Source: an uncultured Methanosarcinales archaeon
GTDB lineage: Archaea; Nanobdellota; Nanobdellia; Woesearchaeales; JAGVZT01
Length of the DNA: 40,371 nt
Reading direction: 5' to 3'
Assembly (NCBI GenBank): GCA_964419615.1
Contig: CAYQPU010000013.1
Span: forward strand, 1-40,371
Positions 17,267 through 37,193 of the stretch are shown piece by piece; position 1 is the stretch's first letter; every line of letters starts with the position of its first letter. A program made the translations under genes and the position numbers. The notes beneath the pieces are model-generated. The model was not told where the DNA came from and searched no databases. It saw only the letters and a program-made list of their open reading frames with translations.

Positions 17267-17455
17267 TGGGCCGGACGGGACTTTCATAACCCTTTCGATT
17301 TCCAAAGCGGATTCGACATAGTCGAAGACGCCACTTTTTGGTCGAGCTTTTGCGCTCTGCGGAAAAGGTCGTTTTGAACCCGCGACCACCTGATTAAAAG
17401 TGTCACCCCTGCCTTCAGGCAAGACAGGTGCTCTGCCTAACTAAGCTACCGGCCC
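17267..17455 (-). tRNA. tRNA-Lys(UUU) with two introns: 30/31 (17402-17424, 23 nt) and 59/60 (17281-17372, 92 nt)
   Basis: Spliced GGGCCGGTAGCTTAGTTAGGCAGAGCACCTGACTTTTAATCAGGTGGTCGCGGGTTCAAATCCCGTCCGGCCCA. BHB central helices CACC/GGTG and TTCA/TGAA. No encoded CCA. Confidence 0.92.
17307..17371 (-). repeat. Shared palindromic intron module, copy in the tRNA-Lys T-loop intron
   Basis: CGACCTTTT-N11-AAAAGCTCGACCAAAAAGTGGCGTCTTCGACTATGTCGAATCCGC; 50 of 65 nt lie in blocks identical to 23376-23440. Confidence 0.85.
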
Positions 17456-17518
17456 TTAAGCCAAAATCCCTTGCAACAGGAATTTATAGCAATATTTTAC
17501 ACCAATCAGATTGGTGAA

Positions 17519-17680
17519 CGCCCTGGCCGGGACTTTCAAACAACCTCACCATTAAAATAGTGAGAGTCATACGTTTTTGAACCCGGGTCGAAGCCTTTCA
17601 ACGGCCTTAAAAGACCAGGAAATCTGGTTTTCCGGTGCCACGACAGGGCTTCATGATAAGCCAGGCTACACCACCAGGGC
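17519..17680 (-). tRNA. tRNA-Asp(GUC) with two introns: 37/38 (17597-17640, 44 nt) and 59/60 (17533-17575, 43 nt)
   Basis: Acceptor GCCCTGG/CCAGGGC, G73; anticodon arm AAGCC-CTGTCGA-GGCTT after splicing. The 37/38 BHB is relaxed. Confidence 0.9.
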
Positions 17681-17843
17681 ATTGCTGAATTGCTGGCCTA
17701 TTTAACCTTCTTCTAGCAAACAGAGTGCTTATTATTCTCTAAACACTAAAAGAAGGATTTCACGACCATGAGCTAGTGGATGTACTTGAATTTATAAATA
17801 TTTCTATTATTAAAATATATAGAAACAGCTAAGATTATAAAAA

Positions 17844-18022
17844 TGCCCCGTCCGGGACTTTCGAACAGCAACCTTTGTTGCAAATCTTCGAACCCAGGTC
17901 CCTGCCTGTCTTCCTTAGAATATGCAAGGAACCACTTGCATTTCCCTTGTCGAAAGGGCAGAATGATTGGTTGCCCAATCTTTTAACATTTGTAAAAGAT
18001 TACCGGACTACACCAACGGGGC
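17844..18022 (-). tRNA. tRNA-Glu(UUC) with three introns: 19/20 (17971-18002, 32 nt), 37/38 (17908-17950, 43 nt), 59/60 (17858-17886, 29 nt)
   Basis: Spliced GCCCCGTTGGTGTAGTCCGGCCAATCATTCTGCCCTTTCGAGGCAGGGACCTGGGTTCGAATCCCGGACGGGGCA. BHB helices GTCC/GGGC, CTTT/GAAG, TTCG/CGAA. Confidence 0.9.
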
Positions 18023-18096
18023 GTAATAATTGTGATTTTGAATTTGTTTTTAAACTTTGTGAATTTATACATATGATTCAGATATAAAAATAAAAA

Positions 18097-18263
18097 TGGG
18101 CCCACGGGGACTTTCCTTCAAACACAAATAGTATCTGCCCTTTGAACCCCGGACCACCGGCTCTCTTAGATTGTACCAATGGTTGTCATATAAGACCGGC
18201 ACTCTAGTTGCCTAGCAATGCCTTAGCATCTGGCAGATTGCTACCAGACTAAGCTATGGGCCC
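18097..18263 (-). tRNA. tRNA-Ile(UAU) with three introns: 19/20 (18208-18243, 36 nt), 37/38 (18163-18188, 26 nt), 59/60 (18111-18140, 30 nt)
   Basis: Spliced GGGCCCATAGCTTAGTCTGGCTAGAGTGCCGGTCTTATAAGCCGGTGGTCCGGGGTTCAAATCCCCGTGGGCCCA. BHB helix C32-T33-T34-A35 pairs with intron TAAG, fixing the anticodon as TAT. Body closely resembles tRNA-Ile(GAU) at 23347-23527. Confidence 0.85.
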
Positions 18264-18417
18264 ATAAAGAATTGAAACAAAAGATTAGTATTTAAAATTT
18301 GTTGTATATTGTATGATCAAATAAAGTCCAAAGAATAGTTTATCTAAAGTTAACAAAAGATTTGTCCTTTGATTAAAAAAAGAAATTTTAAAGTGTGTAT
18401 ACAAGTTAAAGAAAGGA

Positions 18418-18520
18418 TGCGACGGCCGGGGCTTTCGAAGCCAAAGGTTTTGACCTTTTGCTATTCGAACCCGGGCCCCCACCGTGGCAGGGTGGGATCC
18501 TACCACTAGACTACCGTCGC
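18418..18520 (-). tRNA. tRNA-Gly(GCC) with one 59/60 intron (18432-18463, 32 nt)
   Basis: Acceptor GCGACGG/CCGTCGC, A73; anticodon arm CCACC-CTGCCAC-GGTGG; BHB TTCG/CGAA. Confidence 0.93.
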
Positions 18521-18706
18521 TTAATTATTATGAGTTAATTAATCCTATATAAAATTAATGGTATTAAATAGGGACTCATTTTTAAAAAAAGTGATTAGTG
18601 AGTTAATAGATTTTATTATTAATAATTTGGTTAACATTTAATAATTTCACCACTTTTAGATAGTAAAAAACCGAAAGACTTAAATAATTAAAAACACATA
18701 AATTCA

Positions 18707-18955
18707 ATGAATATGTCAAATAGTTCAGGCGTTCCAAGCGTATTTGTTGATTTTATTGACTCTTTACCAGATCTAAATGCAGACATAATTATTAGAGAAA
18801 GTGAATTTCAGTATAGAATTAAAGATAATGGTATTACTCTTGATTGGAAATATACAGGGGGCCTATTAATAGAAACTAATGAGGATACAATTCCACCATG
18901 CCTGAAAGAAGTAACTGGTTCAGATTATAATCGTGTAAAGTTAGTTAGTGAATGA
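18707..18955 (+). CDS. Hypothetical protein, 82 aa, between tRNA-Gly and tRNA-Val
   Basis: ORF with an upstream GAAAGAC-TTAAATA promoter-like motif; no family recognised. Confidence 0.45.
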   Translation: MNMSNSSGVPSVFVDFIDSLPDLNADIIIRESEFQYRIKDNGITLDWKYTGGLLIETNEDTIPPCLKEVTGSDYNRVKLVSE

Positions 18956-19049
18956 CCAAATGTATTTATGTATTTGGATGATAGATTCTTTGGAGTGGAA
19001 CAGCTGAATGAATAATTATACTTATTCTAAATTCAACCAATTAAAAAAA

Positions 19050-19246
19050 TGGGCCCGGCCAGACTTTCTCACTAATGCTCGAAGCATTAATGCCCAAGCA
19101 TTAATATTTGAACTGGCGATCCTCGCCGGTTTTAGCGCAGATAAAATCCAGCAAAAAACTGGTTTTTTGCGCGTGTAAAGGCGATGTCATATGTGGCAAA
19201 AGTCACGTGCGAAACGCAGTTTCTGCAGCCACTAGACCACGGGCCC
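19050..19246 (-). tRNA. tRNA-Val(UAC) with three introns: 20a/21 (19191-19226, 36 nt), 37/38 (19129-19173, 45 nt), 59/60 (19064-19106, 43 nt)
   Basis: Anticodon arm TCGCC-TTTACAC-GGCGA after splicing; BHB helices GTGG/CCAC and TTTA/TAAA; T-loop intron ends GAAAG. Confidence 0.9.
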
Positions 19247-19281
19247 AAGTTTGAATAAAACAAAGAGAGAAAAAAGACTAT

Positions 19282-20256
19282 TTAAAGCTTTTTCTTTAGA
19301 TCCTCAACCATCTTAACTGGAGTTGGATCCACACCATATTTTAAGGCTAAAAAGTATGCTGTCCAAAAACCCATTAAAATTCCTGTAAATATTGTTGTTA
19401 GTTCACTTTCTCCTTTAATAACAACTTCTGTTGTACTTGCATTCTTGGATATTAGATCTCTCGTAATCTTGAATCTTTTGATAATCTTCCTATGACAATC
19501 TTCCTCTCTAATGAAGATTACATGAAATTCCCCTCTAGGATTTGTAAATCCAAGCATCTCATTGTGGTTTAACTCTGGAAAATAATTATAAAACGCAGTA
19601 GTTTTACAGTTCTCATTAAGTGCGGCTTTCCATACCTCAGCAACAGGGCTGAAGAGGTGAGAACCATATACAACAGGGATCTTATCCACCAGATTAGTTG
19701 CAAGTTCTTCTCCCTTTTTTTTGAATGCAGGATTATTCAACTTTTTTGTTAGTTCTTCAACTTCTTTGTCAACTTTCTTAATTATCCCTGAATTTTGGAG
19801 TATTCTTAGTATTGCAAAAAATTGATAGCCTACTGCTTGTCTAGGTTGGATTCCTTTTGGAATTTTTACTAAAGGTTTACTATCTGATTCTGCTTTTTCA
19901 AGTAATTTTCCACCAGAAGCAATTGCTATTGTTGCACAACTTTTTCCTCTTGCAACCTTGTATGCAGAAATAGTTTCCTCAGTATTTCCCGAGTATGAGA
20001 CAGTAAATACTATTGAATCCTTGTCCACAAACTTTGGAAGATCATAGCTCTTATGAACAAATACAGGAATATCACTTTTATCTGATAAGTATGATTGGAG
20101 AATATCTCCGGGTAATGCTGATCCACCCATTCCAGCTACAATTATTTTATTGTACTCACCTTTAATCTTAATGTCCTTTGCTAATTTAAAAAAAGCATTA
20201 TCTATATGATCTGGAAAGTGCTCAAGTACAGAAAGCATATTAGATTTGTCTATCAT
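19282..20256 (-). CDS. Bifunctional phosphoglucose/phosphomannose isomerase (two SIS domains)
   Basis: GMGGSA, SYSGNTEET, ENCK and PELNHNE motifs; start reset to ATG 20256 behind GGTGA. Confidence 0.92.
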   Translation of the reverse strand: MIDKSNMLSVLEHFPDHIDNAFFKLAKDIKIKGEYNKIIVAGMGGSALPGDILQSYLSDKSDIPVFVHKSYDLPKFVDKDSIVFTVSYSGNTEETISAYKVARGKSCATIAIASGGKLLEKAESDSKPLVKIPKGIQPRQAVGYQFFAILRILQNSGIIKKVDKEVEELTKKLNNPAFKKKGEELATNLVDKIPVVYGSHLFSPVAEVWKAALNENCKTTAFYNYFPELNHNEMLGFTNPRGEFHVIFIREEDCHRKIIKRFKITRDLISKNASTTEVVIKGESELTTIFTGILMGFWTAYFLALKYGVDPTPVKMVEDLKKKL

Positions 20257-20376
20257 TAGGTCACCTCTTATCAAAAACAATTATTGGCTAATATAAATAA
20301 TTTATGGCTTTTTAATTTATAATATATTTTAGAGATTATCATAATATTTAAAAACAAGACCTTATTACTTTAATAA

Positions 20377-20443
20377 CAGGTATTAGATGTGGGGAGTTGC
20401 TTCCCTGAATAATACAAAAAAACAAATAATGGAGGCTAATAAT
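20377..20443 (+). promoter_or_regulatory. Candidate structured 5' leader of rpl15e
   Basis: TTTAAAAA at 20348-20355; GC-rich hairpin GGGGAG-TTG-CTTCCC (20391-20405); CAGG/CCTG pairing; GGAGG ribosome-binding site. Confidence 0.35.
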
Positions 20444-21016
20444 ATGGGAATGTATAAATATATTAGAGAGGCTTGGAAAAAGCCAAAAGAAAGTGAGTTC
20501 TGGAAAAAAAGATTAATTGAGTGGCGTAGAGAGCCAGTTACAATCAGAATTAAAAAGCCTACTAGACTAGATAGAGCTAGATCTTTAGGTTACAAAGCAA
20601 AGCAAGGTATTATTGTTGTACGGCACAGGATTAACAGAGGTGGTAAGATGCGGCCAAAGTTTAAGTCTGGTAGAAGATCAAAGAACATGAGACGAAGACT
20701 TGTGCTAGGTAAGAATTATCAACAGATTGCTGAGGAGAGAGCAAACAAGAAATTTAAAAATTGTGAAGTTCTAAATTCATACTGGGTTGCTCAGGATGGA
20801 AGACATTATTGGTTTGAGATTATCTTAGTTGATAGAGCTCATGCTAGTATCAAATCCGATAAAACAATTCAGTGGATAACAAGTAATAAGCACAAAAGAA
20901 GGGCTTATAGAGGTTTGACTTCAGCTGCTAGAAAATCAAGAGGCCTTAGAAATAAGGGTAAAGGAGCAGAAAAGGTTAGACCAAGCTTAAGAGCTAATAG
21001 GCGAAGTGCAAAGTGA
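20444..21016 (+). CDS. rpl15e: 50S ribosomal protein eL15
   Basis: [14 protein letters not shown]...[17 protein letters not shown]...LNSYWV; start reset to ATG 20444. Confidence 0.97.
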
Positions 21017-21747
21017 AAGTAGAATTCAAAGACAGTCAGGGTAGAAAACTAATTGGGATTTTGTCAAACCCAGCTAATAGTGATAAGGTTGTTGTACTCT
21101 GCCATGGTTTTGGCTCAAGCAAGAACAGTAAAACTTATCTTCAAATTGAAGGTCTGCTAAATTCTCAAGGTATAGCTGTTTTTAGGTTTGATTTTTTTGG
21201 ACATGGAGACAGTGATGGTGATTTTGCAGATATTACTTTGACTAAAGCAGTTGATGGTGCATTGTCAGCCCTGGATTATGTTAAATCTCAAGGGTTTAAG
21301 ACTGTTGGTTTGTTTGGTTCTAGTTTTGGAGGAATAACCAGTTTGATTGTTGCTTCAAAAAATCCAGGAATTAGATGTCTGTGTCTAAAATCACCTGTGT
21401 CTGATTATCTTGGTGTTATAATTCTAAACATTGGTGAGCACAAACTTGATGATTGGAAAATAAATGGATCTATTGAATATAGAGATGGTCTGATGCTAAA
21501 TTATTCATTTTATCAGGATGCCCAAAAGTATGATAGTGATGAGTTTGCACCAAAGATAAACGTGCCGACATTGTTTGTTCATGGGAATGTTGATGATATT
21601 GTTCCTTTAGAGCAGAGTATAAGTACTTCAAAAAAGGTAAAGGATGCTAAGTTAGAGATTGTTAAGGGAGCTGACCACCTTTATCATGAAGGTTTTGATG
21701 AAATGTTAAAACTTGTTACTGATTTTCTAGTTAAACAAATTGGCTGA
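21013..21747 (+). CDS. Alpha/beta-fold hydrolase (esterase/peptidase-like)
   Basis: HGF oxyanion motif, GSSFG nucleophile elbow, HGNVDDIVP acid, GADH histidine. Confidence 0.88.
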
Positions 21748-23260
21748 TGTCTGCTGTTTTTTCTTGTTTTTGTCCAACTTGTTTTTTGATATCTATTGCT
21801 GTTTTTTTGCCAATAATTTTTTGAAGTGTTATTAGTTCTACTTTCTTAACTTCACCAATGTCCTTGATGTTGTTTCTGAATAGTTTTCTTGCCCTAACTC
21901 TTCCAATGTTTTTTAGTTGGAGTAAGGCAAGGAGTTCTTCCTTTGCACCATACTTAAGTCTTAGTCTGAGTTTACCCAATTCACTTATCAAAGGCATTAT
22001 TTTTAGGATCCGAGATATTTCTTGAGATGAATATAATAGCCAATCAGCAATTTCATTTTTTATTCGTAGCTCTCCAGGTCTGATGGAATATTTATCTAAT
22101 AGTAGATCTTCACTCATCTCATCCACCCATGAAGAGAACATTTGAGCAGTTTTTATTGATTTCATAAATGTATCATATTCTGGATCATATGGTTCAGGAG
22201 TAAAAGTAAGAATCTTTTCTTGGTTTGTTAAAAAGAAATCATGAACATCATCCCATTCACTTTTTCTTACTGTTAGTAATGGCCTAAGCTCAAGTGTTTG
22301 GGAGATTAATTGAAAAAATGAAAAAGTAGTTGAGTGTTTTGAAGCTTTTTTTAGAGCTTTTACCAAGTCATGCGCAGTTAATGGATCAAGATAAAGCTGG
22401 GCAACTCTTTTTCCAAGGAGTGTTGCATTTATCATGGAGTTTTGAAGTTGATCTGCAGCAACAAAACTTTGACCCTGCCCTGATTCTCCCATTGTTATAA
22501 ATTCCCATTGTTCAAGCTGAGCAAGTGTCCTTCTTATAACACTTCCAAGTTTTTCCATGTCATGGAATTGATGTGCCCAGAATGTTCTTGAAAAGAACTT
22601 TAAGATCGCTTCTTCTGAATTCACAAAGTCAGTTGCTATTAATGCTAACAAGTATGTTCGAAGTACTGGTTCAACTGCAAGCTTTGAAAAGATTTGTTCG
22701 GGTTCACCCATCACATAGTTGTTGTATATTGCTTCTTTTTGGTTGAAGTTTTTTGCAACTGAGATTGCCTCACCATACTTATCATAACTTGGTCGTCCTG
22801 CTCTTCCTGCTTGTTGTTGGTATTCTAAAACAGGGATCCAGATTAAACCTCGATAGCTGAATCTTTTTAGATCTCGGATTATTGTTCGAAATGCTGGAAG
22901 GTCTACACCTGCTGCCAAGGTGGGTGTGCTGCAAATGATTTTTATATTACCATTTCTAAATTCATCTTCAATTAGGTTTCTTTGTTTTTGAACTAAGCCT
23001 GCGTGATGAAATGCAATTCCTTTTTGAGCTATAGCTGAGAGTCTTTTGCATTGCTTTGTTGGACTGGAAAGAGTGTTAAGTAATTGTTCTGAGATTTCTA
23101 AATGCTTGGAGTTTTCTGTTTTTATTTGTTTTGATATATCTTCGGCTGATTTTTCTGCGCCTCTTTTTGTATTTACAAATACTAATGCTTGCTTGCCTTG
23201 TTTAATTGTATCTAATGCTAAGTCTACTACAGCTTCCTTTGTTAACTGTTTGATTTGCAT
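21731..23260 (-). CDS. hel308: Hel308/Ski2-like helicase lacking the N-terminal RecA1 domain (split gene or truncation)
   Basis: Starts at RecA2 (ALVFVNTKR). Has GIAFHHAGL, STPTLAAGVDLPA, QQAGRAGRP, winged-helix/ratchet and HhH (IGRVRARKL) regions. No Q motif, Walker A or DExH box. Confidence 0.85.
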   Translation of the reverse strand: MQIKQLTKEAVVDLALDTIKQGKQALVFVNTKRGAEKSAEDISKQIKTENSKHLEISEQLLNTLSSPTKQCKRLSAIAQKGIAFHHAGLVQKQRNLIEDEFRNGNIKIICSTPTLAAGVDLPAFRTIIRDLKRFSYRGLIWIPVLEYQQQAGRAGRPSYDKYGEAISVAKNFNQKEAIYNNYVMGEPEQIFSKLAVEPVLRTYLLALIATDFVNSEEAILKFFSRTFWAHQFHDMEKLGSVIRRTLAQLEQWEFITMGESGQGQSFVAADQLQNSMINATLLGKRVAQLYLDPLTAHDLVKALKKASKHSTTFSFFQLISQTLELRPLLTVRKSEWDDVHDFFLTNQEKILTFTPEPYDPEYDTFMKSIKTAQMFSSWVDEMSEDLLLDKYSIRPGELRIKNEIADWLLYSSQEISRILKIMPLISELGKLRLRLKYGAKEELLALLQLKNIGRVRARKLFRNNIKDIGEVKKVELITLQKIIGKKTAIDIKKQVGQKQEKTADISQFV

Positions 23261-23282
23261 TAGTGTTTAGAAGATGTTTGAG

Positions 23283-23296
23283 ATTATAAAGGTTTC
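23283..23296 (-). promoter_or_regulatory. BRE-TATA promoter directly upstream of the truncated hel308 ATG
   Basis: GAAACC-TTTATAAT ending 23 nt before ATG 23260; same spacing as the rps7 promoter. Confidence 0.6.
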
Positions 23297-23346
23297 ATAA
23301 TGAGAATTTAATTAGGTCAGAATATGAAAACAATGTATGAAGAGAA

Positions 23347-23527
23347 TGGGCCCGCGGAGACTTTCAACGTCAAATGCGGATTCGACGAAGTCGAAGACGC
23401 CATTTTTGGTCGAACTTTTAAGCGAAGCGCTAAAAGGTCGTTTTTGAACTCCGGACCACCCGATTTCTATCAATGACAAAACGTCATCTTATCAGTCGGG
23501 CACTCCACCAGACTAAGCTACGGGCCC
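23347..23527 (-). tRNA. tRNA-Ile(GAU) with two introns: 37/38 (23465-23489, 25 nt) and 59/60 (23361-23442, 82 nt)
   Basis: Spliced GGGCCCGTAGCTTAGTCTGGTGGAGTGCCCGACTGATAATCGGGTGGTCCGGAGTTCAAATCTCCGCGGGCCCA. Confidence 0.92.
23376..23440 (-). repeat. Shared palindromic intron module, copy in the tRNA-Ile(GAU) T-loop intron
   Basis: CGACCTTTT-N12-AAAAGTTCGACCAAAAATGGCGTCTTCGACTTCGTCGAATCCGC. Confidence 0.85.
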
Positions 23528-23598
23528 ATAACTTTGTGGTTTGAAATTATGTATAAAAAAGTTTCGCTATATTTGCTTAGCAACTTAAGAAATATGAA

Positions 23599-23684
23599 CG
23601 CCCCGAGTCAGACTTGAACTGACGACCTTGCGGTTTCAGTAAGACTTTAACAGCCGCACGCTCTACCGACTAAGCTATCGAGGC
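23599..23684 (-). tRNA. tRNA-Asn(GUU) with a 13-nt 37/38 intron (23635-23647)
   Basis: Acceptor GCCTCGA/TCGGGGC, G73; anticodon arm TGCGG-CTGTTAA-CCGCA; uninterrupted T-loop TTCAAGT. Confidence 0.92.
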
Positions 23685-23744
23685 ATAATAACAAAGAATT
23701 AAAACTTGGTTTAAATACTTTTCGACCAGGTATTAGAAACTAAT

Positions 23745-23891
23745 TTATCCTTTCCCTAGTATTCTTGATACATTTGTTCCGCATTTTGGGCAGACTCCAG
23801 CTGCTCTTTTCAAGTTGTTTTTGGTCATAACTTCCTTCATGTCCTTAATTTCAACTTGTTCACGGCAACTCATGCATCTGGCTTGTACCAT
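23745..23891 (-). CDS. 48-aa zinc-ribbon protein, DUF5679/Cren7-like (not in ORF track)
   Basis: MVQARCMSCREQVEIKDMKEVMTKNNLKRAAGVCPKCGTNVSRILGKG; CxxC...CPxCG; GGTGAGA ribosome-binding site. Family recalled, not searched. Confidence 0.75.
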   Translation of the reverse strand: MVQARCMSCREQVEIKDMKEVMTKNNLKRAAGVCPKCGTNVSRILGKG

Positions 23892-24025
23892 AATCTCACC
23901 TTGTGTATTTGTAATTTATATATAGCTAATATGAATGTTAATATATAAATTTATGTATTTTTTGTATGAAAAACTATAAAAATCACCTGTTTTGTTATAT
24001 ATTAGTATTAATCGAGGAAATTAGC

Positions 24026-24358
24026 ATGCGGAGAGGAAGACCTGTTTTTAGCCAAATTCGACAAAATCTTGTAGAAATACTGTTCGTCATGGGGAAAGGT
24101 TATGGATACAATATTTACAAGACTTATATTGCCATATTTCCCAAAACAAGTCAGAGGAATGTTTATTACCAATTAAAAAGAGGGGTTGATTTGGATATAT
24201 TTGCGGTTGACAAAATTGAGACTGAAAAGGGTGAGTTCTCCTGGGGAAACCAAGCAACAAAAACCTATTACAAACTAGGGCCATCAGCAAAACCAGCTGG
24301 TATGGGTCGAGTTAGGGAATATTTTGAATCACTCAAGCTTTCTGAAGAATCCAAGTAA
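24026..24358 (+). CDS. Conserved hypothetical protein, probable PadR-like winged helix
   Basis: Start reset to MRRGRP at 24026; GYGYNIYK...RNVYYQL...TYYKLG pattern. Confidence 0.6.
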   Translation: MRRGRPVFSQIRQNLVEILFVMGKGYGYNIYKTYIAIFPKTSQRNVYYQLKRGVDLDIFAVDKIETEKGEFSWGNQATKTYYKLGPSAKPAGMGRVREYFESLKLSEESK

Positions 24359-25009
24359 AGCAAAAGCTTCTCTTTTTGTAAGCATTGCTTTTCCAATAAC
24401 TCTTTGCCAGACTTTTTTTTGAATTTCTCTTTTTTCCTCAGTTGTAAAGTACATTTTATCTGTTATTTTGTTGATTTTTTCAAACAGTACTTTTTTTTCC
24501 TTGTTTGTGATTGAAGGCCATTTTTTTTCCTCTAAATCAGAAGATTGAAATGATTCATAGAGTAGGATTGCAAGGGCATGACTTATGTTTAATGTTGAAT
24601 ATTCTTTTGAAGAAGGAATTTTAACAACAAAATCACATAGAGATATTTCTTCATTTGTCAATCCAATATCTTCCCTGCCGATTAGAAGAGCGATATTTGA
24701 ATCAGAACTTTTGGCTTTTTTGGCGAATTCTTTTGGAGTTATTGGAACTCGGGGGATGTTATAATCAGAACCTGTTTTGGCTGTTGTTCCAACAACTGTA
24801 TCAAATGTGTCTAGACAACTAATATCCTCAATTTTCGCAGAAGATAAGACATCCTTTGCGTGCATTGCTCTTGCTAGTGCCTCATTGTCATCCTTATCAC
24901 ATTTAGGATTAATTAATATCAAATCTTTAAAACCAAAGTTTTTCATAACTCTTGCTATGGCTCCCAAATTACCAGGAGTTTGAATTTCAAACAAAACAAC
25001 TGTTAGCAT
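24329..25009 (-). CDS. trmJ: SPOUT-family RNA methyltransferase, TrmJ-like
   Basis: PGNLGAIARVMKNFG, IGREDIGL and IPSSKEYSTLNISHA motifs. Confidence 0.85.
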   Translation of the reverse strand: MLTVVLFEIQTPGNLGAIARVMKNFGFKDLILINPKCDKDDNEALARAMHAKDVLSSAKIEDISCLDTFDTVVGTTAKTGSDYNIPRVPITPKEFAKKAKSSDSNIALLIGREDIGLTNEEISLCDFVVKIPSSKEYSTLNISHALAILLYESFQSSDLEEKKWPSITNKEKKVLFEKINKITDKMYFTTEEKREIQKKVWQRVIGKAMLTKREAFALLGFFRKLE

Positions 25010-25046
25010 AAATTAAAGGTGAATGTGAGAAATATAAAAAGATTTG

Positions 25047-26210: not shown

Positions 26211-26233
26211 GGTTTACCTCTTTTTTTTATTAA

Positions 26234-26395: not shown

Positions 26396-26396
26396 A

Positions 26397-29307: not shown

Positions 29308-29409
29308 ATATTGTAGTTGATAATACATCTTAGAATATATATTTTACAAAATAATAATGCTTATATAATATTATCCTATATCTATAATCTATTACATGGG
29401 GGTTATTGG

Positions 29410-29685
29410 ATGGATAAGAAAAGTTTAGAGGTTTTTAATATTTTCTTTAGAGAAAAACCTGCAATGATGCTGGTTAATTTAAAAAATGCTAAAGATGAAG
29501 TTTATGCTAGCGCACTTGCAAAAAAAATTGATTGTACCTATTCTCATGTTGTAAAAATCCTGCAGCAGATGGAGAAAGCTGGGTTGGTTGAGTTCAAAAA
29601 ACAAGGAAGACTAAAGTTGTTGAAGTTAACTAAGAAAGGTAATTCCATGGCTGAGCATATTGACAGTGTAAGACAACTTCTTTAA
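29410..29685 (+). CDS. MarR-like winged-helix DNA-binding protein
   Basis: YASALAKKIDCTYSHVVKILQQMEKAGLV...GR...LTKKG; start reset to ATG 29410. Confidence 0.8.
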   Translation: MDKKSLEVFNIFFREKPAMMLVNLKNAKDEVYASALAKKIDCTYSHVVKILQQMEKAGLVEFKKQGRLKLLKLTKKGNSMAEHIDSVRQLL

Positions 29686-29781
29686 TTTTATACTTTCTTA
29701 ATATTTAATAAACAGAACATTTATAAAAAACATTCTTTAAGGGCATTATAAAAAGGTTTATAATAGGTAAAAAGAGGAAAA

Positions 29782-30702
29782 ATGTTTATTGTAGATAAGA
29801 AGAAAACAGGAGTTTTTTCATTGCCAACAAAAGAGATTAATCCTTCTGATGCACATATGTTTAAGTCTGAACTTGCACTCAAAATTTTAAAGCTTCTTGT
29901 TAAGGAGCCTATGTATCCTGTGGAGATTGCCAAAAAGCTTGGAGTGCATGAACAAAAGGTGTATTATCATATCAGGAATTTTGAGCAAAGTGGTTTTATT
30001 AAGGTTGTTAGAAGAGAGACTAAACAGGGAGCTATTGCTAAGTATTATCAAGTTACCCACCCCAGCTTTGTTGTTATGCTTAAGGAGCTTGAGCCTACTC
30101 AAAAGATTACTAAGCTTAAAAGTGATTCTAAGTTTTTGAAGCCTTTTATTAAAGATGGGCAACTTAATGCTAGAGTGATTGTTGGAAGTCCGGATCCACA
30201 TGGTCCTGATAAGGCAAGGTCAAGGGATGGTTATTATGGGATTGATCTAGGTTTGTTCTTAGGGACTTTTTTAAATTATGTTCCAGATTTTAATGTTATG
30301 CTTGATACAGAAGTTAGAGAGAAAGATCTGAAGGGAAATCTTATTCTTATTGGTGGTCCAATTGTTAATAAAGTAACTGAAAGGGTTAATATGAAACTAC
30401 CTGTAAGGTTTTCTAAAGAGAATAATTGGGCAATTGAGTCAAAAGTTTCAGGTAAACTATATCCTTCTGATGAGATTGGTTTGATTGTTTCTGCTAAGAA
30501 TCCATTAAGTGAGGAACACAATGTTCTTTTGGTTGCAGGCAAGAGATTTTCTGGGACAAGAGCTGCAATTATTGCATTTTTAAAATATTTTAAAGAAGTT
30601 ACTGAAGGTAATTTACATAACAAAAAGATTAAAGGTAAGATTGTTGAAGGCGTAGATTTGGATTCGGATGGGATTATTGATGATATTGAATTTTTAGAAT
30701 AA
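29782..30702 (+). CDS. ArsR-like HTH protein with an uncharacterised C-terminal domain
   Basis: KILKLL...MYPVEIAKKLGVHEQKVYYHI HTH; C-terminal NLILIGGPIVN segment. Confidence 0.7.
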   Translation: MFIVDKKKTGVFSLPTKEINPSDAHMFKSELALKILKLLVKEPMYPVEIAKKLGVHEQKVYYHIRNFEQSGFIKVVRRETKQGAIAKYYQVTHPSFVVMLKELEPTQKITKLKSDSKFLKPFIKDGQLNARVIVGSPDPHGPDKARSRDGYYGIDLGLFLGTFLNYVPDFNVMLDTEVREKDLKGNLILIGGPIVNKVTERVNMKLPVRFSKENNWAIESKVSGKLYPSDEIGLIVSAKNPLSEEHNVLLVAGKRFSGTRAAIIAFLKYFKEVTEGNLHNKKIKGKIVEGVDLDSDGIIDDIEFLE

Positions 30703-32118
30703 CTATACTTTCTCTTCAATTGTAAGTTTGGATAAAGCTTTTTTTGATATTTCAATGAATTCATCTTCCTTGTCTGAAGGGATTACTGCTCCAGCTGCCA
30801 TTTTATGTCCTCCTGCTATTCCCACACCTAAGGTTTCAATCATTTGAGAAACAATGTTGTTTAAACTTACGTCTGGACTCCCGCTGATTCTTATGCTGAC
30901 CTTTGTTTTTTTCTGTTCATTTTGAGCCATGGATAAGATAAATGTTCCAGGTTCTAGTTCATTTGAATAGGATATTATTGAGGCCATTGTACCAATAATT
31001 GATGGTCTAACATTATCTTCTGCATTTATTATGATAAATCCTTCTTTTACTGTTACACTTGAACTTTTTTTGTTTTTTTCATACCATTTCAATGCACCAA
31101 CAATTTCTTTTCTGTATTCCAAGAGTGTGTTGAGTGCCAATTTTTTTATTTTTTCATCTCCAAGACAAGTTCCAATTCCAAGTGATGCTCTTCCCATTCT
31201 TCCGCATGCGTTTAGCAATGTTGAGAATTCTTTTGCATCTCTTAGTGAAGATTCTTTTTCTTCATTTTTTAAGATGTATACATCACCAATGATGTCTTCA
31301 GGATTAGTTTGATCCATTCTTCTAATTAGAATTGCTTCTGCTAATTTTTGGATTTCTTCTTTGCTAAGATGGACTAGTTTTCTCCATGCATTACCTTGTT
31401 TTGGCTCTATTCCAGTTTCTTTTAAAAATTGGATAGCACCAGATTCACTTCCAGAAACACCAGGAATGACTGGGTCTGTACAATATTCCAGTACTTTATG
31501 CAAAGATCTGGTTTGTACTCCAAATAATTTCAAACCTTTTATTTTTTTTATTTTATTTTTTTGAATAGCTGTGTCTATTATTGCCTGGTTTAAAATTGAG
31601 AAACCTTCTCGATCCTGGATGTCACCAATAGCTCCAATCAACGCTATGTGTGCCATGTTTTCTAGCTTTGGATTTAATCTGCTTGCAAAAAAATATACAA
31701 CACCTGCTCCACTTATGTCTTGCGAGCCGTCCATATTTGAAAAATGTGGGTTGATATGAGTTCCTGTGAAGTCAGCTTCTGCAGGTTTATGGTGGTCAAG
31801 AATAAACACATTTCTGTCACTAAGATGTTTAGCAATTAGATCTAGCTGCCCAGATCCAATGTCTGTAAAGATGAAGTGTTTATAATCTTCAGAAGAAATT
31901 GATTTTATTTCTTGTTCATCTAGCTGTTGGACTATTGAAACAGAATATTTCCTGTTTTCTAGGTTAAGAGCCTTTAGAATGATTGCAGAAGCACAGATAC
32001 CATCAGTATCAAGATGGCTTACTATCTTGATGGTTTCTGATGGTTCTATCTCCCGAAATTTTTCAACCCCTTTTTTTATTTGTTGATTGAATCCTTCTAT
32101 ATCCATCTCACTCAACAT
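30703..32118 (-). CDS. RecJ-like DHH phosphoesterase (DHH plus DHHA1)
   Basis: SHLDTDG, TDIGS, LDHH and GGHKMAAG motifs; follows rps15, as is common in archaea. Confidence 0.92.
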   Translation of the reverse strand: MLSEMDIEGFNQQIKKGVEKFREIEPSETIKIVSHLDTDGICASAIILKALNLENRKYSVSIVQQLDEQEIKSISSEDYKHFIFTDIGSGQLDLIAKHLSDRNVFILDHHKPAEADFTGTHINPHFSNMDGSQDISGAGVVYFFASRLNPKLENMAHIALIGAIGDIQDREGFSILNQAIIDTAIQKNKIKKIKGLKLFGVQTRSLHKVLEYCTDPVIPGVSGSESGAIQFLKETGIEPKQGNAWRKLVHLSKEEIQKLAEAILIRRMDQTNPEDIIGDVYILKNEEKESSLRDAKEFSTLLNACGRMGRASLGIGTCLGDEKIKKLALNTLLEYRKEIVGALKWYEKNKKSSSVTVKEGFIIINAEDNVRPSIIGTMASIISYSNELEPGTFILSMAQNEQKKTKVSIRISGSPDVSLNNIVSQMIETLGVGIAGGHKMAAGAVIPSDKEDEFIEISKKALSKLTIEEKV

Positions 32119-32563
32119 AGAACCTCATTTTCTTTGAATCATACTTCCAGTCAGCTGCCAATTTTCCAGAACTTTTATAGTATTTGACCAGTCTTTGGAT
32201 CTTTGAGTTTGTTAGTTCTAATCCTCTTTTTGCGGTTTGATCTTTTCTGTTTTCACCCATGTGCTTTTCAATGTCAATGTACTTTCTCATCAATGCAAGC
32301 AAATCTTCTGGTAGTTCACTTTTAATGTTTTTTTCTTCGAGTATTTGCGTTACTCTTTTTCCTGTGACTGCTTTAACATCTGGAACACCATAAGTATCTC
32401 TTAGTAAGAGTCCAATTTTTGATGATGTGTGTCCTTCCTTACCTAGTTTTGTGATCAATAATTCTACTTCCTTTTTTTTGTATCTGATCCAGGTTAGTTT
32501 TTTATCTTTTAATGGTTTTGATGAACCAGATTTACCTTTTTTTCTTGAATAAAATCTTGCCAT
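32108..32563 (-). CDS. rps15: 30S ribosomal protein uS15
   Basis: MARFYSRKKGKSGS...IGLLLRDTYGVP...LPEDL...KIQRLVKYYK. Confidence 0.97.
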   Translation of the reverse strand: MARFYSRKKGKSGSSKPLKDKKLTWIRYKKKEVELLITKLGKEGHTSSKIGLLLRDTYGVPDVKAVTGKRVTQILEEKNIKSELPEDLLALMRKYIDIEKHMGENRKDQTAKRGLELTNSKIQRLVKYYKSSGKLAADWKYDSKKMRFYVE

Positions 32564-32655
32564 ATTAATCCTCCTAAGTCAGAAAATTTTAGCATAAGTA
32601 AGCATTTACCGACTTATCTAACATATGGGTAAGAAAGATGTGTTTATAAAGGTTT
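32564..32655 (-). promoter_or_regulatory. rps15 promoter (BRE-TATA 32643-32655) and candidate structured leader
   Basis: AAACC-TTTATAAA; an 8-bp helix TAAGTCGG/CTGACTTA (32609-32616 with 32575-32582) abuts the GGAGG site. Confidence 0.5.
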
Positions 32656-32678
32656 GGGTGTACAAATAAAAGAATAGC

Positions 32679-33032
32679 TCAATTTAATTGTTCAAATAAC
32701 CCTAAAGATTGTGTTGGTCGATAATTCTGAAACATATATTCACTCATGTACATGTACCTATAGATCTCTTCATTATAAAACACTTCTGCTATGTCGTCCA
32801 CTAGAAGCATTATTGTATAAGCATCACCCATTGTTTCACTAGAAAAATCTATTTCCCATAATTCATAAGCACTTTCTATTTTTTCTGTAATTCTATTTCG
32901 AAGTGCTTGCATGAAATCATGAGGAAGAATATTGTCCTCAAGCATATCTCTAACAATACAGTGTAAGGTGATTTCTGTTTTTGATTTAGTGTTCATATGA
33001 AGGGAATTGACTACAGTGTGATTCTTCTCCAA
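32679..33032 (-). CDS. Hypothetical protein
   Basis: 117-aa ORF overlapping the 3' end of the upstream ORF; no family recognised. Confidence 0.45.
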   Translation of the reverse strand: MEKNHTVVNSLHMNTKSKTEITLHCIVRDMLEDNILPHDFMQALRNRITEKIESAYELWEIDFSSETMGDAYTIMLLVDDIAEVFYNEEIYRYMYMSEYMFQNYRPTQSLGLFEQLN

Positions 33033-33678
33033 CTATTACTGTAAATGTGTTTGATTCCATAAAAACAGGGATCTGTGTTTCATCACCTGTTGCCTGAATT
33101 AAGTAACCATAACCACCAAATGCTGTTGCCAGTCTTCTGATAAGTCCAAGGTCTCCTAGATCCATGTCAATTGCATCCCTTATGTTTGTGACTATATGGT
33201 CAACTTGTTCGAAAATGTGCTGCGGTTCCTCAATAAACTCAAGTTCATTTATTTGATCTGATATTTTATCAACAAGAGTAGTGGCTTCTTTTGAAAGTAA
33301 AGGATATTCTGTGAGTAATTCCTTTCCTCCACTTGCAAGATAAGTTGCAAACTCTATGTAAGTTTGTCCTGTTTTCATAATTTCTTCAACAACATCATTA
33401 ATGTCATCAATTCCAAAAGGCATAATGTCTTTGTCCGCGGTAATTATATTATTACCAATATATTCTTGTAATCCTTTTTCCAATTGTTTTTGTTCATCTA
33501 CTTGACTAGAACCATTCACCATATGACCAGCATATTGACCTGCAAGGTTACCTGCACATGGTGCTTTTTCTTCAATACATCCAGGTGCAAGAGAACATCT
33601 ACTAATTGCAACATCTTCTGTTAAATTTACTCTGCACGGATTTGTGTATAATAAAGATAATTTTATTGAATCATTCAT
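32986..33678 (-). CDS. Hypothetical acidic protein
   Basis: 230-aa ORF; upstream AACC-TTTATATA promoter-like motif. Confidence 0.6.
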   Translation of the reverse strand: MNDSIKLSLLYTNPCRVNLTEDVAISRCSLAPGCIEEKAPCAGNLAGQYAGHMVNGSSQVDEQKQLEKGLQEYIGNNIITADKDIMPFGIDDINDVVEEIMKTGQTYIEFATYLASGGKELLTEYPLLSKEATTLVDKISDQINELEFIEEPQHIFEQVDHIVTNIRDAIDMDLGDLGLIRRLATAFGGYGYLIQATGDETQIPVFMESNTFTVIVGEESHCSQFPSYEH

Positions 33679-33816
33679 TTCAACTCTCCCTCAAGAAAAC
33701 TTGAGATGCTAACACCTCTTTATTAATGGGTAAAGATTTAGATATATAAAGGTTATGCACAGCAAGAATCTTTTAGTCTCAATTGATAACTATTATAAGC
33801 TTATAGTAGTTCTCTT

Positions 33817-34239
33817 ATGGGCATGGATTCAGGGACATATGATTCAGTAAAATGTTTTGTTGAGATTAATGGAAAAGAAGCTTTTATTAGACAAGCATTG
33901 CTTGGATTTTATGAGCAAGGTAATGATCTTGATCAATTAGTGACTGATGATTTTTCTGCTCAATTAAAAGAAGTACATCTGATGCCAAAGACAACTGTTC
34001 TTTATATGCATCCAATATTAGGTGTATTCAGTATATCAACTGAAAAATCTGTAGAATTTATTAATGATCATGGAGGATTTGCAGTTGGATTTGAATATCC
34101 AATAAAACCAAGTCATCCAGATTCAATTCAGTTGTCCTTTTTTTATACAGATGAAATACCCATTCCTACTCAGGACGGCATTTTATTTGATGATAAGTGT
34201 TATTCCATTTCATTTGAACACATTGATATTGAACAGTGA
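33817..34239 (+). CDS. Hypothetical protein
   Basis: 140-aa ORF; no family recognised. Confidence 0.55.
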   Translation: MGMDSGTYDSVKCFVEINGKEAFIRQALLGFYEQGNDLDQLVTDDFSAQLKEVHLMPKTTVLYMHPILGVFSISTEKSVEFINDHGGFAVGFEYPIKPSHPDSIQLSFFYTDEIPIPTQDGILFDDKCYSISFEHIDIEQ

Positions 34240-34392
34240 CAGTGCTCGTAATACCATTACTGCAGAATAAAGGAACATTTTTACACATCATCCATATTTG
34301 TGGCAAAAACTAAGAAAAAACTTCTTATTCACGGCATTTTTTAATGACAAAGCCTAAATCTGTGAACATCTCATATAATTGTAGTGAGAAAA

Positions 34393-34956
34393 ATGAGTAG
34401 ATATAACCCAACTTGGATGGAGAAGTTTATGGATGGATCATTAGATCTTTTAGAGGATGGATTTAATCCTGGAATGAAATTTTGGTTAGATATGTTTGAT
34501 GGTAAAGAACCTAGATTTGAGGATGCACTTATGGGTGATTCGGGTGTCTGGGGAGATTTTACAGACGTTATTGGATATGTTAAAAGAAAAGAAGAGAATG
34601 GAATAGGTTTGTATATGCCAATTACAGAGGAAGTTTTAGATATTCAAGCTGCAGAGGAGGATTTTAAAAAAATAGCTCCCAATCTAGTTAAGCTCACTAG
34701 AATATTCTTTGACAAACTTGAATATCAAGCTAAGAGTAATGAGTGGATTAATAGTCTTGGAGATGAGACTAGAAATTTACTTGGTAAAGTTGCAAAAATT
34801 TATCTTGAATTAAGAGATGCTGATCGAGTATCTTACCCCAAGATAATTACACCTATAGCTTTTGATGAGCTGTATAAAGAAGGAGTAGCTGTAACTACCC
34901 ATAATGTGATTGACGGGAAAATTACATACAAGGCAGGAGAACCTTACCAAGTCTAG
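34393..34956 (+). CDS. Hypothetical protein
   Basis: ATG 34393 preferred over GTG 34384; no family recognised. Confidence 0.55.
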   Translation: MSRYNPTWMEKFMDGSLDLLEDGFNPGMKFWLDMFDGKEPRFEDALMGDSGVWGDFTDVIGYVKRKEENGIGLYMPITEEVLDIQAAEEDFKKIAPNLVKLTRIFFDKLEYQAKSNEWINSLGDETRNLLGKVAKIYLELRDADRVSYPKIITPIAFDELYKEGVAVTTHNVIDGKITYKAGEPYQV

Positions 34957-35103
34957 TCAGCTTATTGATATTTTTTCTTTTTTGTTTTATTTAAATAAAT
35001 ATTAAATATTTAAATATTTAATGATATTTATATAATATAATCAAAATATTTAAGTTTTTGCTTCTCTACCTATTATTTAATAAATGATAAAAGGTGGTTA
35101 ATA

Positions 35104-35499
35104 ATGAGTTTAAAAATTAATAAAACAGAAGAACTAGGGGTTGGAGAGATTAGAGCAGAGGGTTCGTATCTTTCAATAGATTATGTATGTAATGGTATGC
35201 CAGAAGGTAATGTTAGAGTTCCTGCTACTGAAACAGTTTTGGTTAATAAAGATCCATTTGCTATTGGACATTTGGTTTATTTGCTAAGTGATGCATATAC
35301 TTCATTTGAATATTTCACATCATTTGAAGGTCAGCGAGATTTGGAGCTTGAAGGAGGAGGGCAATTTGGAACATTATTTGGTGGACTGAATAAAAGAAAA
35401 TTGACATCATTTGTTATGGATCTTCAATCACAGATGGCTGATTATAATGAAGCAATAGCAGGTGTGGTTATGAAATATCACAATATGACACAAAAATAA
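35104..35499 (+). CDS. Hypothetical protein
   Basis: 131-aa ORF with an AGGTGG ribosome-binding site. Confidence 0.6.
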   Translation: MSLKINKTEELGVGEIRAEGSYLSIDYVCNGMPEGNVRVPATETVLVNKDPFAIGHLVYLLSDAYTSFEYFTSFEGQRDLELEGGGQFGTLFGGLNKRKLTSFVMDLQSQMADYNEAIAGVVMKYHNMTQK

Positions 35500-35545
35500 A
35501 ATAAAGTTTGTCAAACATAAGAAGTGAATTTTGAAATAAGTGGTT

Positions 35546-36418
35546 TTATTTATTGTTTACCACAAAAAAATTAGCAACTGGTTCTAGTTCATTTCCACCG
35601 TAAGCTGACATGTACTGAATTCCATCCCCATTATGAAATGCAAATTCAGAGGACCACCCACTGTCAGCAGCCATTGCTTCATGGCAGCCAAGAGATGCCA
35701 TAAACTCCCCAGCTGTTTTAAATGTCATTGTTTTTGTTATTACAAGATATAATGTGTTATCATTTATACCAACAAGTGTTCTTGATCCTGGATCCCATCT
35801 TGGATTTCCCTGACTATGGTCATTGATTACATCTTGGGGTATGATTCTTTGTCCACTTTCACTAGTTAATATGGTTTTTATTCCAGATACTGCATATGCA
35901 ATGTTTGAAGGATATGGTTGTTCAATATGAGTAATGTCTAAAGTTCCATTATTGTACACAATTAGAGATGGAGAGGGAGTATCTTCACCTGTGCACACTC
36001 TTTCCCCCTGATCATATGTATAACACCAAGGACTAACTGAATCTGCACCTCTATGCATGTCACCATTTACAGCTAATAATCCAGGATAGTTTTCCAGGTA
36101 TTGTTTTGCTGTTATTTTTCTACCGATTGGCATGCTTGATTCAATACTGAATTTATTTATATCAACTGAGAATACATGATTACCTTGAATAATTTGATAA
36201 TCAATTCCATCCATTTCTTGAATGTTTGCACCATAATATGAGGTTTCGGGATCAGAATCAATAACTGTTTGTTCAATTGCTTCTAAAGGTGGTGCAATCT
36301 CTACTTCTGCAACTGGTGTTTGAGTGCCTCCTTGCTCTACGTGCTGATAAAAAAAGTACAATGGAACCCAACATGTTAAAGTTAAAGCCACAATTGCCAA
36401 TCCTCTTGAACAGCCCAT
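35546..36418 (-). CDS. Secreted or membrane-anchored phosphodiester glycosidase (NAGPA-like) domain protein
   Basis: N-terminal hydrophobic helix; AVNGD, PGSRTLVGI and AMAADSGWSS resemble the family motifs NG, PRTAIGI and ALNLDGGGSS. Confidence 0.7.
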   Translation of the reverse strand: MGCSRGLAIVALTLTCWVPLYFFYQHVEQGGTQTPVAEVEIAPPLEAIEQTVIDSDPETSYYGANIQEMDGIDYQIIQGNHVFSVDINKFSIESSMPIGRKITAKQYLENYPGLLAVNGDMHRGADSVSPWCYTYDQGERVCTGEDTPSPSLIVYNNGTLDITHIEQPYPSNIAYAVSGIKTILTSESGQRIIPQDVINDHSQGNPRWDPGSRTLVGINDNTLYLVITKTMTFKTAGEFMASLGCHEAMAADSGWSSEFAFHNGDGIQYMSAYGGNELEPVANFFVVNNK

Positions 36419-36517
36419 GTTGTTATTTAAGAGTGGTTAACAGATATATAAATTTTTACCCAAAATTGGTTAAAACATAAGCTTAAGCATATAAATCTCA
36501 ATTCCAATTATCTTAAT

Positions 36518-36811
36518 ATGCCTTTTAAAAGAAATGATAAAAGAACACTTGGAAAACTAGTTAGAGATGTTGGATTTGGAGCTTTACAATTAACTGTGGG
36601 AATTGCAGCATTTTATTGTGTTGCTGAATACGGATCTGATTTTTATCATAATATGACAGATTCAGGTATACATGGTTCTACTGGATATTTACTATTGTGG
36701 GGAGTTGGGGTTGGACTTCCTGCTCTTGAGTTTTTCCTAGGGGGTGTTAATTCATACAGAGGTATTTGCAATCTAGCAAATATTGAATATGAGAAAAATA
36801 TTAAAAAATAG
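36518..36811 (+). CDS. Small membrane protein (two hydrophobic segments)
   Basis: 97-aa ORF whose TAG stop lies inside the duplicated tRNA-Gln 3' end. Confidence 0.55.
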   Translation: MPFKRNDKRTLGKLVRDVGFGALQLTVGIAAFYCVAEYGSDFYHNMTDSGIHGSTGYLLLWGVGVGLPALEFFLGGVNSYRGICNLANIEYEKNIKK

Positions 36812-36886
36812 CCCTGCCAGGTAAAGGAAAACTTTGGATTTTCCAGACCTGTCAGTGCAATTCAAAAAAAGAATAGCCCTGCCAGG
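36807..36886. repeat. 15-bp direct repeat of the tRNA-Gln 3' end (36807-36821 and 36872-36886)
   Basis: aatagccctgccagg occurs twice, 50 nt apart; it covers tRNA positions 61-73. Confidence 0.8.
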
Positions 36887-37193
36887 ACTTTCACAGACCT
36901 TTTACAAAGCACAGTCAAAGCATTGACTGGTTTGTCTTGTGTCGTGGCCATCTTGTTTTCTAATTGGCCACGTTAATGGGCTTTGAACCCATTCTGTTTT
37001 GATCAAACTTTTCTTAAAAGTTTGTTTTGGTCGAACTTTTAAGCGCAGCGGCAAAAGGTCGTTTCGAACCTGGGTCACTACCTTTCTATGAAACAGAAAT
37101 CCTCAGATGAACTTTTCTTTTTCTGCTATCTCCAAAGGGTAGTATGATTGGTCTCAAACTTTTTAGTTTGTTTGACCACTACACCACAGGGCT
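36874..37193 (-). tRNA. tRNA-Gln(UUG) with three introns: 21/22 (37148-37171, 24 nt), 37/38 (37084-37131, 48 nt), 59/60 (36888-37062, 175 nt)
   Basis: Spliced AGCCCTGTGGTGTAGTGGTCAATCATACTACCCTTTGGAGGTAGTGACCCAGGTTCGAATCCTGGCAGGGCTA; A1-U72 pair typical of archaeal tRNA-Gln. The D-loop boundary may be off by 1-2 nt. Confidence 0.88.
37025..37061 (-). repeat. Shared palindromic intron module, partial copy in the tRNA-Gln T-loop intron
   Basis: CGACCTTTTGCCGCTGCGCTTAAAAGTTCGACCAAAA; 34 of 37 nt identical to the tRNA-Ile(GAU) copy. Confidence 0.85.

Follow-up and report, generated by a model that had tools for sequence, protein, structure and literature searches.

The window analyzed here is the whole of contig C13, 40,371 nucleotides (nt) of a woesearchaeal genome, and it raises the question of what interrupts the T-loops of its tRNA genes and why the interruptions end so much alike. 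An earlier note on this DNA had described, in eight of nine tRNA genes, an intron placed after TTCRAA and ending in NGAA-AG before nucleotide 60, and had ascribed it to a position-specific invasion. Each of the eight was recovered by our scan, and the observation of dense introns at position 59/60 of the T-loop is confirmed. According to our analysis, the inserts are very probably (probability of about 0.82) archaeal, protein-spliced tRNA introns of the bulge-helix-bulge (BHB) type, located at a non-canonical site that is as heavily used as the canonical 37/38.

The genome measures 1.48 Mb in 64 contigs (completeness 99.4%, contamination 2.3%) and has a GC content of about 33%. The RpoB encoded next to a tRNA cluster shares 87% identity with that of a Woesearchaeota metagenome-assembled genome from a Red Sea brine, and the next 80 best RpoB loci are nearly all labelled Woesearchaeota or Nanoarchaeota. 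ARAGORN and Rfam, used at permissive thresholds, called tRNA-Asn as the sole tRNA of the window (1 of 9 genes), and ARAGORN called only about 10 of the 42 tRNA genes of the unspliced genome. The genes of the window were revealed by GC-rich islands, by reading of the minus strand and by a custom scan, which looks for a 7-bp acceptor stem and a T-arm, permits an interruption after TTCRA and is followed by splicing in silico.

Bulge-helix-bulge geometry of the T-loop junctions

In the precursor, the outer helix would be the T-stem (49–53 with 61–65), and a central helix of four base pairs would join T54-T55-C56-R57 to the YGAA found two bases before the end of the intron. A58-A59 and the first intron base would make up the 5' bulge, and A-G with N60 the 3' bulge. 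Judged by sequence, this is the standard 3-4-3 BHB, cut after the second base of each bulge. All four central pairs are present in 27 of the 31 introns found at 59/60 in this genome, and three of the four in the others. RNAfold gave bulge, 4-bp helix and bulge as the minimum free energy structure of the whole Gly-GCC precursor (z = -4.0), and the T-arms of Asp and Val fold in the same way. In 30 of the 31 precursors, the pairing probability of the T-stem exceeds 0.5.

Covariation at position 57 provides further evidence. A C faces this position only in genes with G57 (5/8 vs 0/23, p = 3e-4), and among 86 introns of relatives the counts are 16/29 with G57 vs 2/57, a comparison whose p-value is overstated as the relatives are not independent. 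The pairing and the bulge geometry put forward in the earlier note are therefore right, and so are the pairs it listed: in the window, position 57 forms a Watson-Crick A-T pair in Lys, Asp and Ile-GAT and a G-C pair in Glu and Gly, with a G-U wobble in Gln-TTG and a mismatch in Val-TAC and Ile-TAT.

Candidate introns were delimited by a single BHB rule: setting aside the final two bases of the exon and of the intron, the four bases directly upstream on one side pair with the four on the other. Applied to the anticodon loops of this genome, the rule yields introns at the canonical 37/38, and this fixes the register in the T-loop, A59 being kept and the G removed; a register shifted one base upstream, which would leave G59 in the mature tRNA, is ruled out on the same ground. 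For each gene, we chose the intron combination that gave the best cloverleaf; five genes with at least three introns were partly resolved by program and the remainder was read by hand. The spliced exons give a standard cloverleaf with an intact 7-nt T-loop. ARAGORN accepts 34 of the 39 tRNAs spliced in silico, with the expected anticodons, as well as Gln-TTG after manual splicing, and the remaining four failures are due to other introns left unresolved, not to the T-loop intron.

A self-splicing origin was considered and rejected. Group I and II introns in tRNA genes are typically longer than 200 nt, with a core that is recognizable by covariance models, whereas the inserts found here measure 14–191 nt, have a BHB junction and lack a ribozyme match: no Rfam intron family was found in the window, even at E up to 10.

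The nine tRNA genes of the window all lie on the minus strand and hold 20 introns altogether; the outer ends of its first and last T-loop introns are 17281 and 37062. tRNA-Lys(TTT) (17268–17455) has a 92-nt intron at 59/60 (17281–17372, tail TGAA-AG), which belongs to the short subfamily of a structured family described below, and a second intron at position 30/31. In tRNA-Asp(GTC) (17520–17680), a 43-nt T-loop intron (17533–17575, TGAA-AG) is accompanied by a 44-nt intron at 37/38. The T-loop intron of tRNA-Glu(TTC) (17845–18022) is 29 nt long (17858–17886), with a CGAA-AG tail facing G57, and that of tRNA-Ile(TAT) (18098–18263) is 30 nt long (18111–18140), with a GGAA-AG tail and a mismatched A57; both genes have additional introns in the D-loop and at 37/38. 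The 32-nt intron of tRNA-Gly(GCC) (18419–18520; intron 18432–18463, CGAA-AG, N60 = C) is its only one. tRNA-Val(TAC) (19051–19246) carries a 43-nt intron at 59/60 (19064–19106, AGAA-AG, A57 mismatched) and others in the D-loop and at 37/38. In tRNA-Ile(GAT) (23348–23527), the T-loop intron (23361–23442, 82 nt, TGAA-AG) is again of the short subfamily, and a 25-nt intron occupies 37/38. tRNA-Gln(TTG) (36875–37193) combines a 175-nt intron of the long structured family at 59/60 (36888–37062, TGAA-AG, G57-U wobble) with two further introns, one in the D-loop (about 23 nt) and one at 37/38 (48 nt). As the earlier note had it, tRNA-Asn(GTT) (23600–23684) is the only gene of the window without a T-loop intron: its T-loop reads TTCAAGT, with G59, and its only intron is a 13-nt one at 37/38.

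Two side observations concern this cluster. tRNA-Ile(TAT) is present on the minus strand and just one tRNA with a CAT anticodon was found in the genome, and AUA may be read by the UAU anticodon instead of a modified CAU tRNA. A truncated-looking helicase open reading frame beside the tRNAs was considered as a gene split by tRNA insertion; this was rejected, the upstream reading frame being a SpoU methylase.

Occupancy of the site and the shared intron tail

We then consider the whole genome, for which the custom scans, two genes detected by Infernal only and one from a relaxed pass give an inventory of 42 tRNA genes. A 59/60 intron of 14–191 nt is present in 31 of them (74%) and lacking in 11, including the only copies found of Asn and Met. 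The sites 37/38 and 59/60 hold 31 introns each, the D-arm or D-loop about 19 and other positions 3, the counts outside the T-loop resting partly on manual reading. The T-loop site, proposed earlier as a favoured position, thus ties with 37/38 and does not exceed it. The total of about 84 introns in 42 genes, or two per gene, surpasses the published maximum of 71 introns in 46 genes, found in Pyrobaculum calidifontis, the archaeal mean being 0.21 per gene (PMC8450103). A strict pattern (GGTTCRAA, 8–68 nt, GAAAGTCC) has 25 matches in this genome and all 25 are inside tRNA genes; the motif pattern is not due to chance.

A second recurrent non-canonical site lies just after the GG of the D-loop (about 19/20 to 20/21) and is used in about 19 genes genome-wide, among them Val-TAC, Ile-TAT, Glu-TTC and Gln-TTG of the window. 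Its introns often end in AA before C, and the long family is sometimes found there (Arg-CCT, 169 nt; Glu-CTC, 173 nt). The 37/38 introns of tRNA-Arg-CCT (C20, 19472–19918) and tRNA-Trp (C16, 16748–17027) contain a box C-like UGAUGA and a box D-like CUGA and, from these motifs, may encode C/D box guide RNAs. Such guide RNAs are known in the tRNA-Trp introns of other archaea.

The association of the intron with A59, first suggested by tRNA-Asn, holds within this genome. All but one of the 31 intron-bearing genes have A at position 59, as against 5 of the 11 intron-free ones; in other terms, the intron occurs in 30/35 genes with A59 vs 1/7 without (p = 5e-4). A59 is nevertheless neither sufficient, as Ser-GCT, Leu-TAG, Arg-TCG, Thr-CGT and Met have it and no intron, nor necessary, as Val-GAC has T59 and an intron. 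Three multi-copy sets were observed: three tRNA-Trp(CCA) genes, two of them adjacent, two tRNA-Tyr and two tRNA-His (C5, 56835–57092; C16, 16748–17027; C19, 28139–28208; C11, 4875–5022; C26, 14351–14504 and 21684–21896). Every set includes one copy with no 59/60 intron and with a base other than A at 59, and these copies of Trp and Tyr are entirely free of introns.

To place these features among relatives, we used the rpoB-flanking DNA of 80 Woesearchaeota, where the tail was required only to form at least three central-helix pairs; 98 of the 199 detectable tRNAs have a 59/60 intron. In this sample, A59 is found in 88/98 T-loops with an intron vs 84/101 without (odds ratio 1.8, p = 0.2), and introns also occur with G59 (6) and C59 (4). 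Because the odds ratio is weak and these G59 and C59 introns exist, the A59 link does not generalize.

In this genome, 28 of the 31 introns have YGAA-AG, or a close variant of it, as their tail; the ending is -AA in Val-GAC and one His gene, and GGGA-TT in the second Tyr gene. The YGAA part is fixed by pairing. As for the last two bases, which the earlier note had regarded as an invariant bulge that pairing does not force, the penultimate base is A in 32 of 39 well-resolved introns at other sites, while the last base is G in only 3–5 of the 39. The penultimate A is hence generic to the 3' bulges of BHB motifs in this genome, and the G is particular to 59/60. Invariance does not extend to the relatives, where the 3' bulge of the 98 introns reads AG in 54, AA in 21, TG in 10 and otherwise in 13, with N60 = T in 95, and where orthologous Asp and Lys genes alternate between AG and AA. 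We regard the terminal G as a site-specific preference, arising either from shared descent with homogenization or from a mild preference of the enzyme.

How old this occupancy is can be seen upstream of rpoB, where five relatives (RpoB 76–87% identical) have tRNA-Asp(GTC) and tRNA-Lys(TTT), both always with a 59/60 intron. The intron bodies, 20–168 nt in length, mostly bear no relation to those of this genome. As both genes are occupied in 5/5 relatives while the bodies are unrelated, we conclude that occupancy of the site is old and that the body turns over. The strict pattern was found in 29 of the 41 nearest relatives (28/40 without genome G006, which is flagged as unpublished and supports no claim made here) and in 89 of 151 genomes across the phylum, among them 15 of the 34 genomes that belong to other orders of the class, in lower counts there; reversed-pattern controls were near zero in the relatives. 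Summed over three length bins, there are at least 23 strict matches here, 20 in a genome of the same genus and 11–14 in three genomes of the same family. The pattern is absent from one family member and several other lineages. The genomes G005, G011, G013 and G034, well-assembled relatives from the same family or order, show no strict pattern and only control-level counts with a relaxed tail; in lineages without strict matches, the relaxed-tail counts were no better than those of the reversed control. The trait is clade-wide but variable, with a T-loop intron load that differs strongly within the order and with this genome at the high end; expansion of the long family is seen mostly in this genus.

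This distribution bears on what the introns might be kept for. Randau and Soll, as summarized in PMC4033280, proposed that disrupted or split tRNA genes are shielded, and introns could be selected for breaking the T-arm and 3' half and so removing the attachment sites of viruses and plasmids. This published idea would suit a genome in which introns break up the most conserved tRNA segment in 74% of genes, but some lineages of the same order have few or no pattern matches, and we consider such selection unlikely.

The earlier note had also raised a maturation checkpoint, in which sequestration of U54-R57 would force splicing before T-loop modification and folding and give global control over the tRNA supply. 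The pairing in the precursor necessarily blocks T-loop formation, so that folding and modification of the T-loop must wait for splicing, and in a red alga Pus4, the pseudouridine-55 synthase, left precursors with T-arm introns unmodified (PMC9602550). Any T-loop intron nonetheless imposes this order incidentally, with no need for selection; eleven tRNAs, among them the sole copies found of Asn and Met, do without the intron, and occupancy varies widely among relatives. We find control of this kind quite unlikely, and a selected checkpoint function is speculation. The introns may persist for another reason, whether because they shield the genes from integrating elements or because they are simply hard to lose.

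A structured intron family and its movement between genes

Twenty of the 31 T-loop introns (82–191 nt) align into one structured family. Its architecture consists of a 5' hairpin built on CUUUU/AAAAG runs, an ACCAAAA linker, two more hairpins and an A-rich closing segment before the tail. Across the copies, compensatory changes occur in each of the three hairpins, and Rfam has no match for the family. Its single-stranded conserved segments are ACCAAAA and ACAAGAU. Three copies are in the window (36888–37062, 17281–17372 and 23361–23442, all on the minus strand), and the others are on contigs C3, C5, C7, C8, C10, C16, C20, C21, C26, C32, C35 and C43.

The short subfamily is hosted by Gln-CTG, Ile-GAT, Lys-TTT, Cys and Gly-TCC. 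Its introns are 83–92% identical while the mature host tRNAs are 57–66% identical, and we therefore conclude that introns moved between tRNA genes. The transferred unit ends at most two bases from the splice site, since 3 of the 8 hosts with G57 bear the TGAA tail typical of A57 hosts. The T-stem is not transferred along with it: hosts whose introns are near-identical have different T-stems. Such precision suits a process defined by the splice site, or conversion through very short shared flanks followed by selection. Retro-homing was rejected as a route of spread, as no reverse transcriptase domain was found in the genome.

The family is not confined to the T-loop. A search with nhmmer also located the family in D-loop or 37/38 introns of Glu-CTC, Ser-CGA, Arg-TCT, Arg-CCT, Thr-CGT and Gly-TCC, and one copy lies outside tRNA genes, inside the archaeal RNase P RNA gene (Rfam RF00373, 101.5 bits; contig C3, about 47764–47910, minus strand). 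There it stands directly 5' of the conserved GAGGAAAGUCC segment, at the expected helix P3. We considered this copy as a BHB intron cut at GGAA-AG and rejected the idea, as the cut would delete the essential conserved GAGGAAAG segment; the copy looks like a retained expansion. The position-specific invasion proposed earlier is thus partly borne out: a single family occupies 59/60 in 20 tRNA genes, yet the family is also found in the D-loop, at 37/38 and in RNase P RNA. As to its timing, the copies are indeed more alike than their hosts, with the qualification that Asp and Lys occupancy is old in the five relatives.

These comparisons leave little room for purely vertical inheritance, in which each tRNA would hold one ancient, structurally constrained 59/60 intron that diverges slowly and never moves between genes. 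Occupied Asp and Lys orthologues in all five relatives examined, and a tail that is conserved while the bodies differ, are what it would lead one to see. It does not explain why the Cys/Gly and Gln/Ile introns are 84–92% identical when the tRNAs are 57–66% identical, why orthologous tRNAs of close relatives hold unrelated bodies, why the intron clades cut across tRNA identities within this genome, or why relatives repeat a body of their own in several tRNA genes; we judge it very unlikely. Such genome-specific bodies, repeated at 59/60, occur in many relatives.

A far-reaching interpretation would be that the 59/60 introns are self-propagating RNA elements for which the T-arm is a landing pad and which move exactly at the junction, by reversal of EndA and RtcB or by short-flank conversion. 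We hold this to be doubtful and put it forward only tentatively. If true, three quarters of the tRNAs would need splicing before their T-loop folds and is modified, and the long structured members, the RNase P RNA copy included, may act after excision.

Splicing machinery and comparison with known systems

The genome has one EndA gene of the alpha type (contig C3, 32058–32714, 219 amino acids), which matches PF02778 (N-terminal) and PF01974 (catalytic). Its closest solved relatives are the alpha subunit of N. equitans and the subunit of the M. jannaschii alpha4 homotetramer, and the alignment with the M. jannaschii enzyme is nearly gapless save for an N-terminal extension of about 45 residues. 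No second EndA subunit or paralog was found in the genome by Pfam search and tblastn, which a very divergent beta subunit could escape. There is one intact RtcB gene (contig C1, 45127–46422). This enzyme set agrees with a published account in which DPANN lineages, a Woesearchaeota genome among them, combine an alpha4-type EndA with many disrupted tRNA genes and with tRNA sets that could not be completed (PMC5829648).

Our working model for protein-spliced BHB introns is as follows. The single alpha-type EndA, presumably a homotetramer, would cut after A59 and after the last intron base. RtcB would then join the exons, and only afterwards would the T-loop fold and be modified. The T-arm is universally conserved. 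As it would supply the exon half of the motif, one tail would suit nearly any tRNA, which would make 59/60 a universal landing pad, long occupied in this order, while intron bodies would be replaced over time and would pass from one tRNA gene to another exactly at the splice junction. Cleavage, ligation, the oligomeric state of EndA and the mechanism of spread are all inferred from sequence.

Several points weigh against this interpretation. Thermodynamic support is moderate, the AU-rich central helix having a probability above 0.5 in only 16 of the 31 precursors. Four introns are mismatched at the 57 pair, and the tail of the second tRNA-Tyr, on contig C11, is quite unlike the others (GGGA-TT). 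EndA of the alpha4 type is classically described as requiring strict motifs, and several other introns in this genome look relaxed. We know of no mechanism for precise intron transfer, to which is added the lack of an encoded reverse transcriptase. Our scan demands a TTCRA-like T-loop and a perfect T-stem, a possible bias in the counts, and the initiator tRNA was not found in the genome-wide scans, presumably concealed by further introns, so the inventory is incomplete. Finally, no insert was seen in the catalytic domain of EndA compared to the M. jannaschii enzyme, and the "L3 loop" of PMC5829648 could not be placed in it.

That the loci are not introns at all (pseudogenes, assembly artefacts or tRNAs retaining large T-loop insertions) is hardly conceivable, for even though standard finders reject them, they are the sole copies for most anticodons in a 99% complete genome, their exons splice into clean cloverleaves, their junctions covary and more than 100 independent assemblies show the same architecture.

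The probable presence of protein-spliced introns at 59/60 has practical consequences for annotation. DPANN tRNA sets have been reported as incomplete and were expected to hide disrupted genes (PMC5829648). In this genome, the 59/60 introns account for the genes that the finders miss, and the remedy is to strip those with a YGAA-AR tail and scan again. Families specific to one genome, at one site, with boundaries at most two bases from the junction also offer clean material for studying how protein-spliced introns are gained, a question open since the work on Thermoproteales. A single alpha-type EndA that apparently handles all introns bears, in addition, on the features that give broad specificity.

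Our full-text literature search for tRNA introns in Woesearchaeota and DPANN, whose coverage was not exhaustive, returned papers on EndA only and not this pattern. The closest precedent is ARMAN-2 (Candidatus Micrarchaeum acidiphilum), whose pre-tRNA-Cys(GCA) and pre-tRNA-Pro(GGG) have 59/60 introns, the Cys one being cut in vitro by its EndA (Fujishima et al. 2011, PMC3239211). The same paper describes 59/60 as overlapping the major insertion sites of other archaea. The two systems share the insertion point in the T-loop, a DPANN host and a protein-spliced, BHB-type intron. In ARMAN-2, however, few tRNAs use the site, the Cys intron is 13 nt long with a relaxed hBH motif and EndA is a three-unit epsilon2 enzyme, whereas here 31 of 42 genes are concerned, with a mostly full 3-4-3 motif, a near-constant YGAA-AG, introns of up to 191 nt and a single alpha-type EndA gene.

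Thermoproteales are known for tRNA genes with multiple introns and for large-scale intron transposition (Sugahara 2008 and Fujishima 2010, as summarized in PMC4090602 and PMC4033280). They likewise have many non-canonical BHB introns, with similar ones in unrelated tRNA genes, and they defeat standard finders. They belong to the TACK phylum, have a heterotetrameric (alpha-beta)2 EndA with a specific loop and spread their introns over many positions, while in this genome one non-canonical site holds 31 of about 84 introns.

In the nuclear tRNA genes of Cyanidioschyzon merolae, T-arm introns and permuted junctions have been described (PMC3728597, PMC9602550). Introns are again inside the T-arm, and there is experimental evidence that Pus4 stays inactive on such precursors until the intron is gone. 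This organism is a eukaryote with another endonuclease; the introns concern few of its genes, and neither a shared tail nor an intron family is reported. Taken together, these comparisons indicate that the intron type and the site are already known, and that what stands out here is their unusual density, the near-constant tail and a proliferating structured family.

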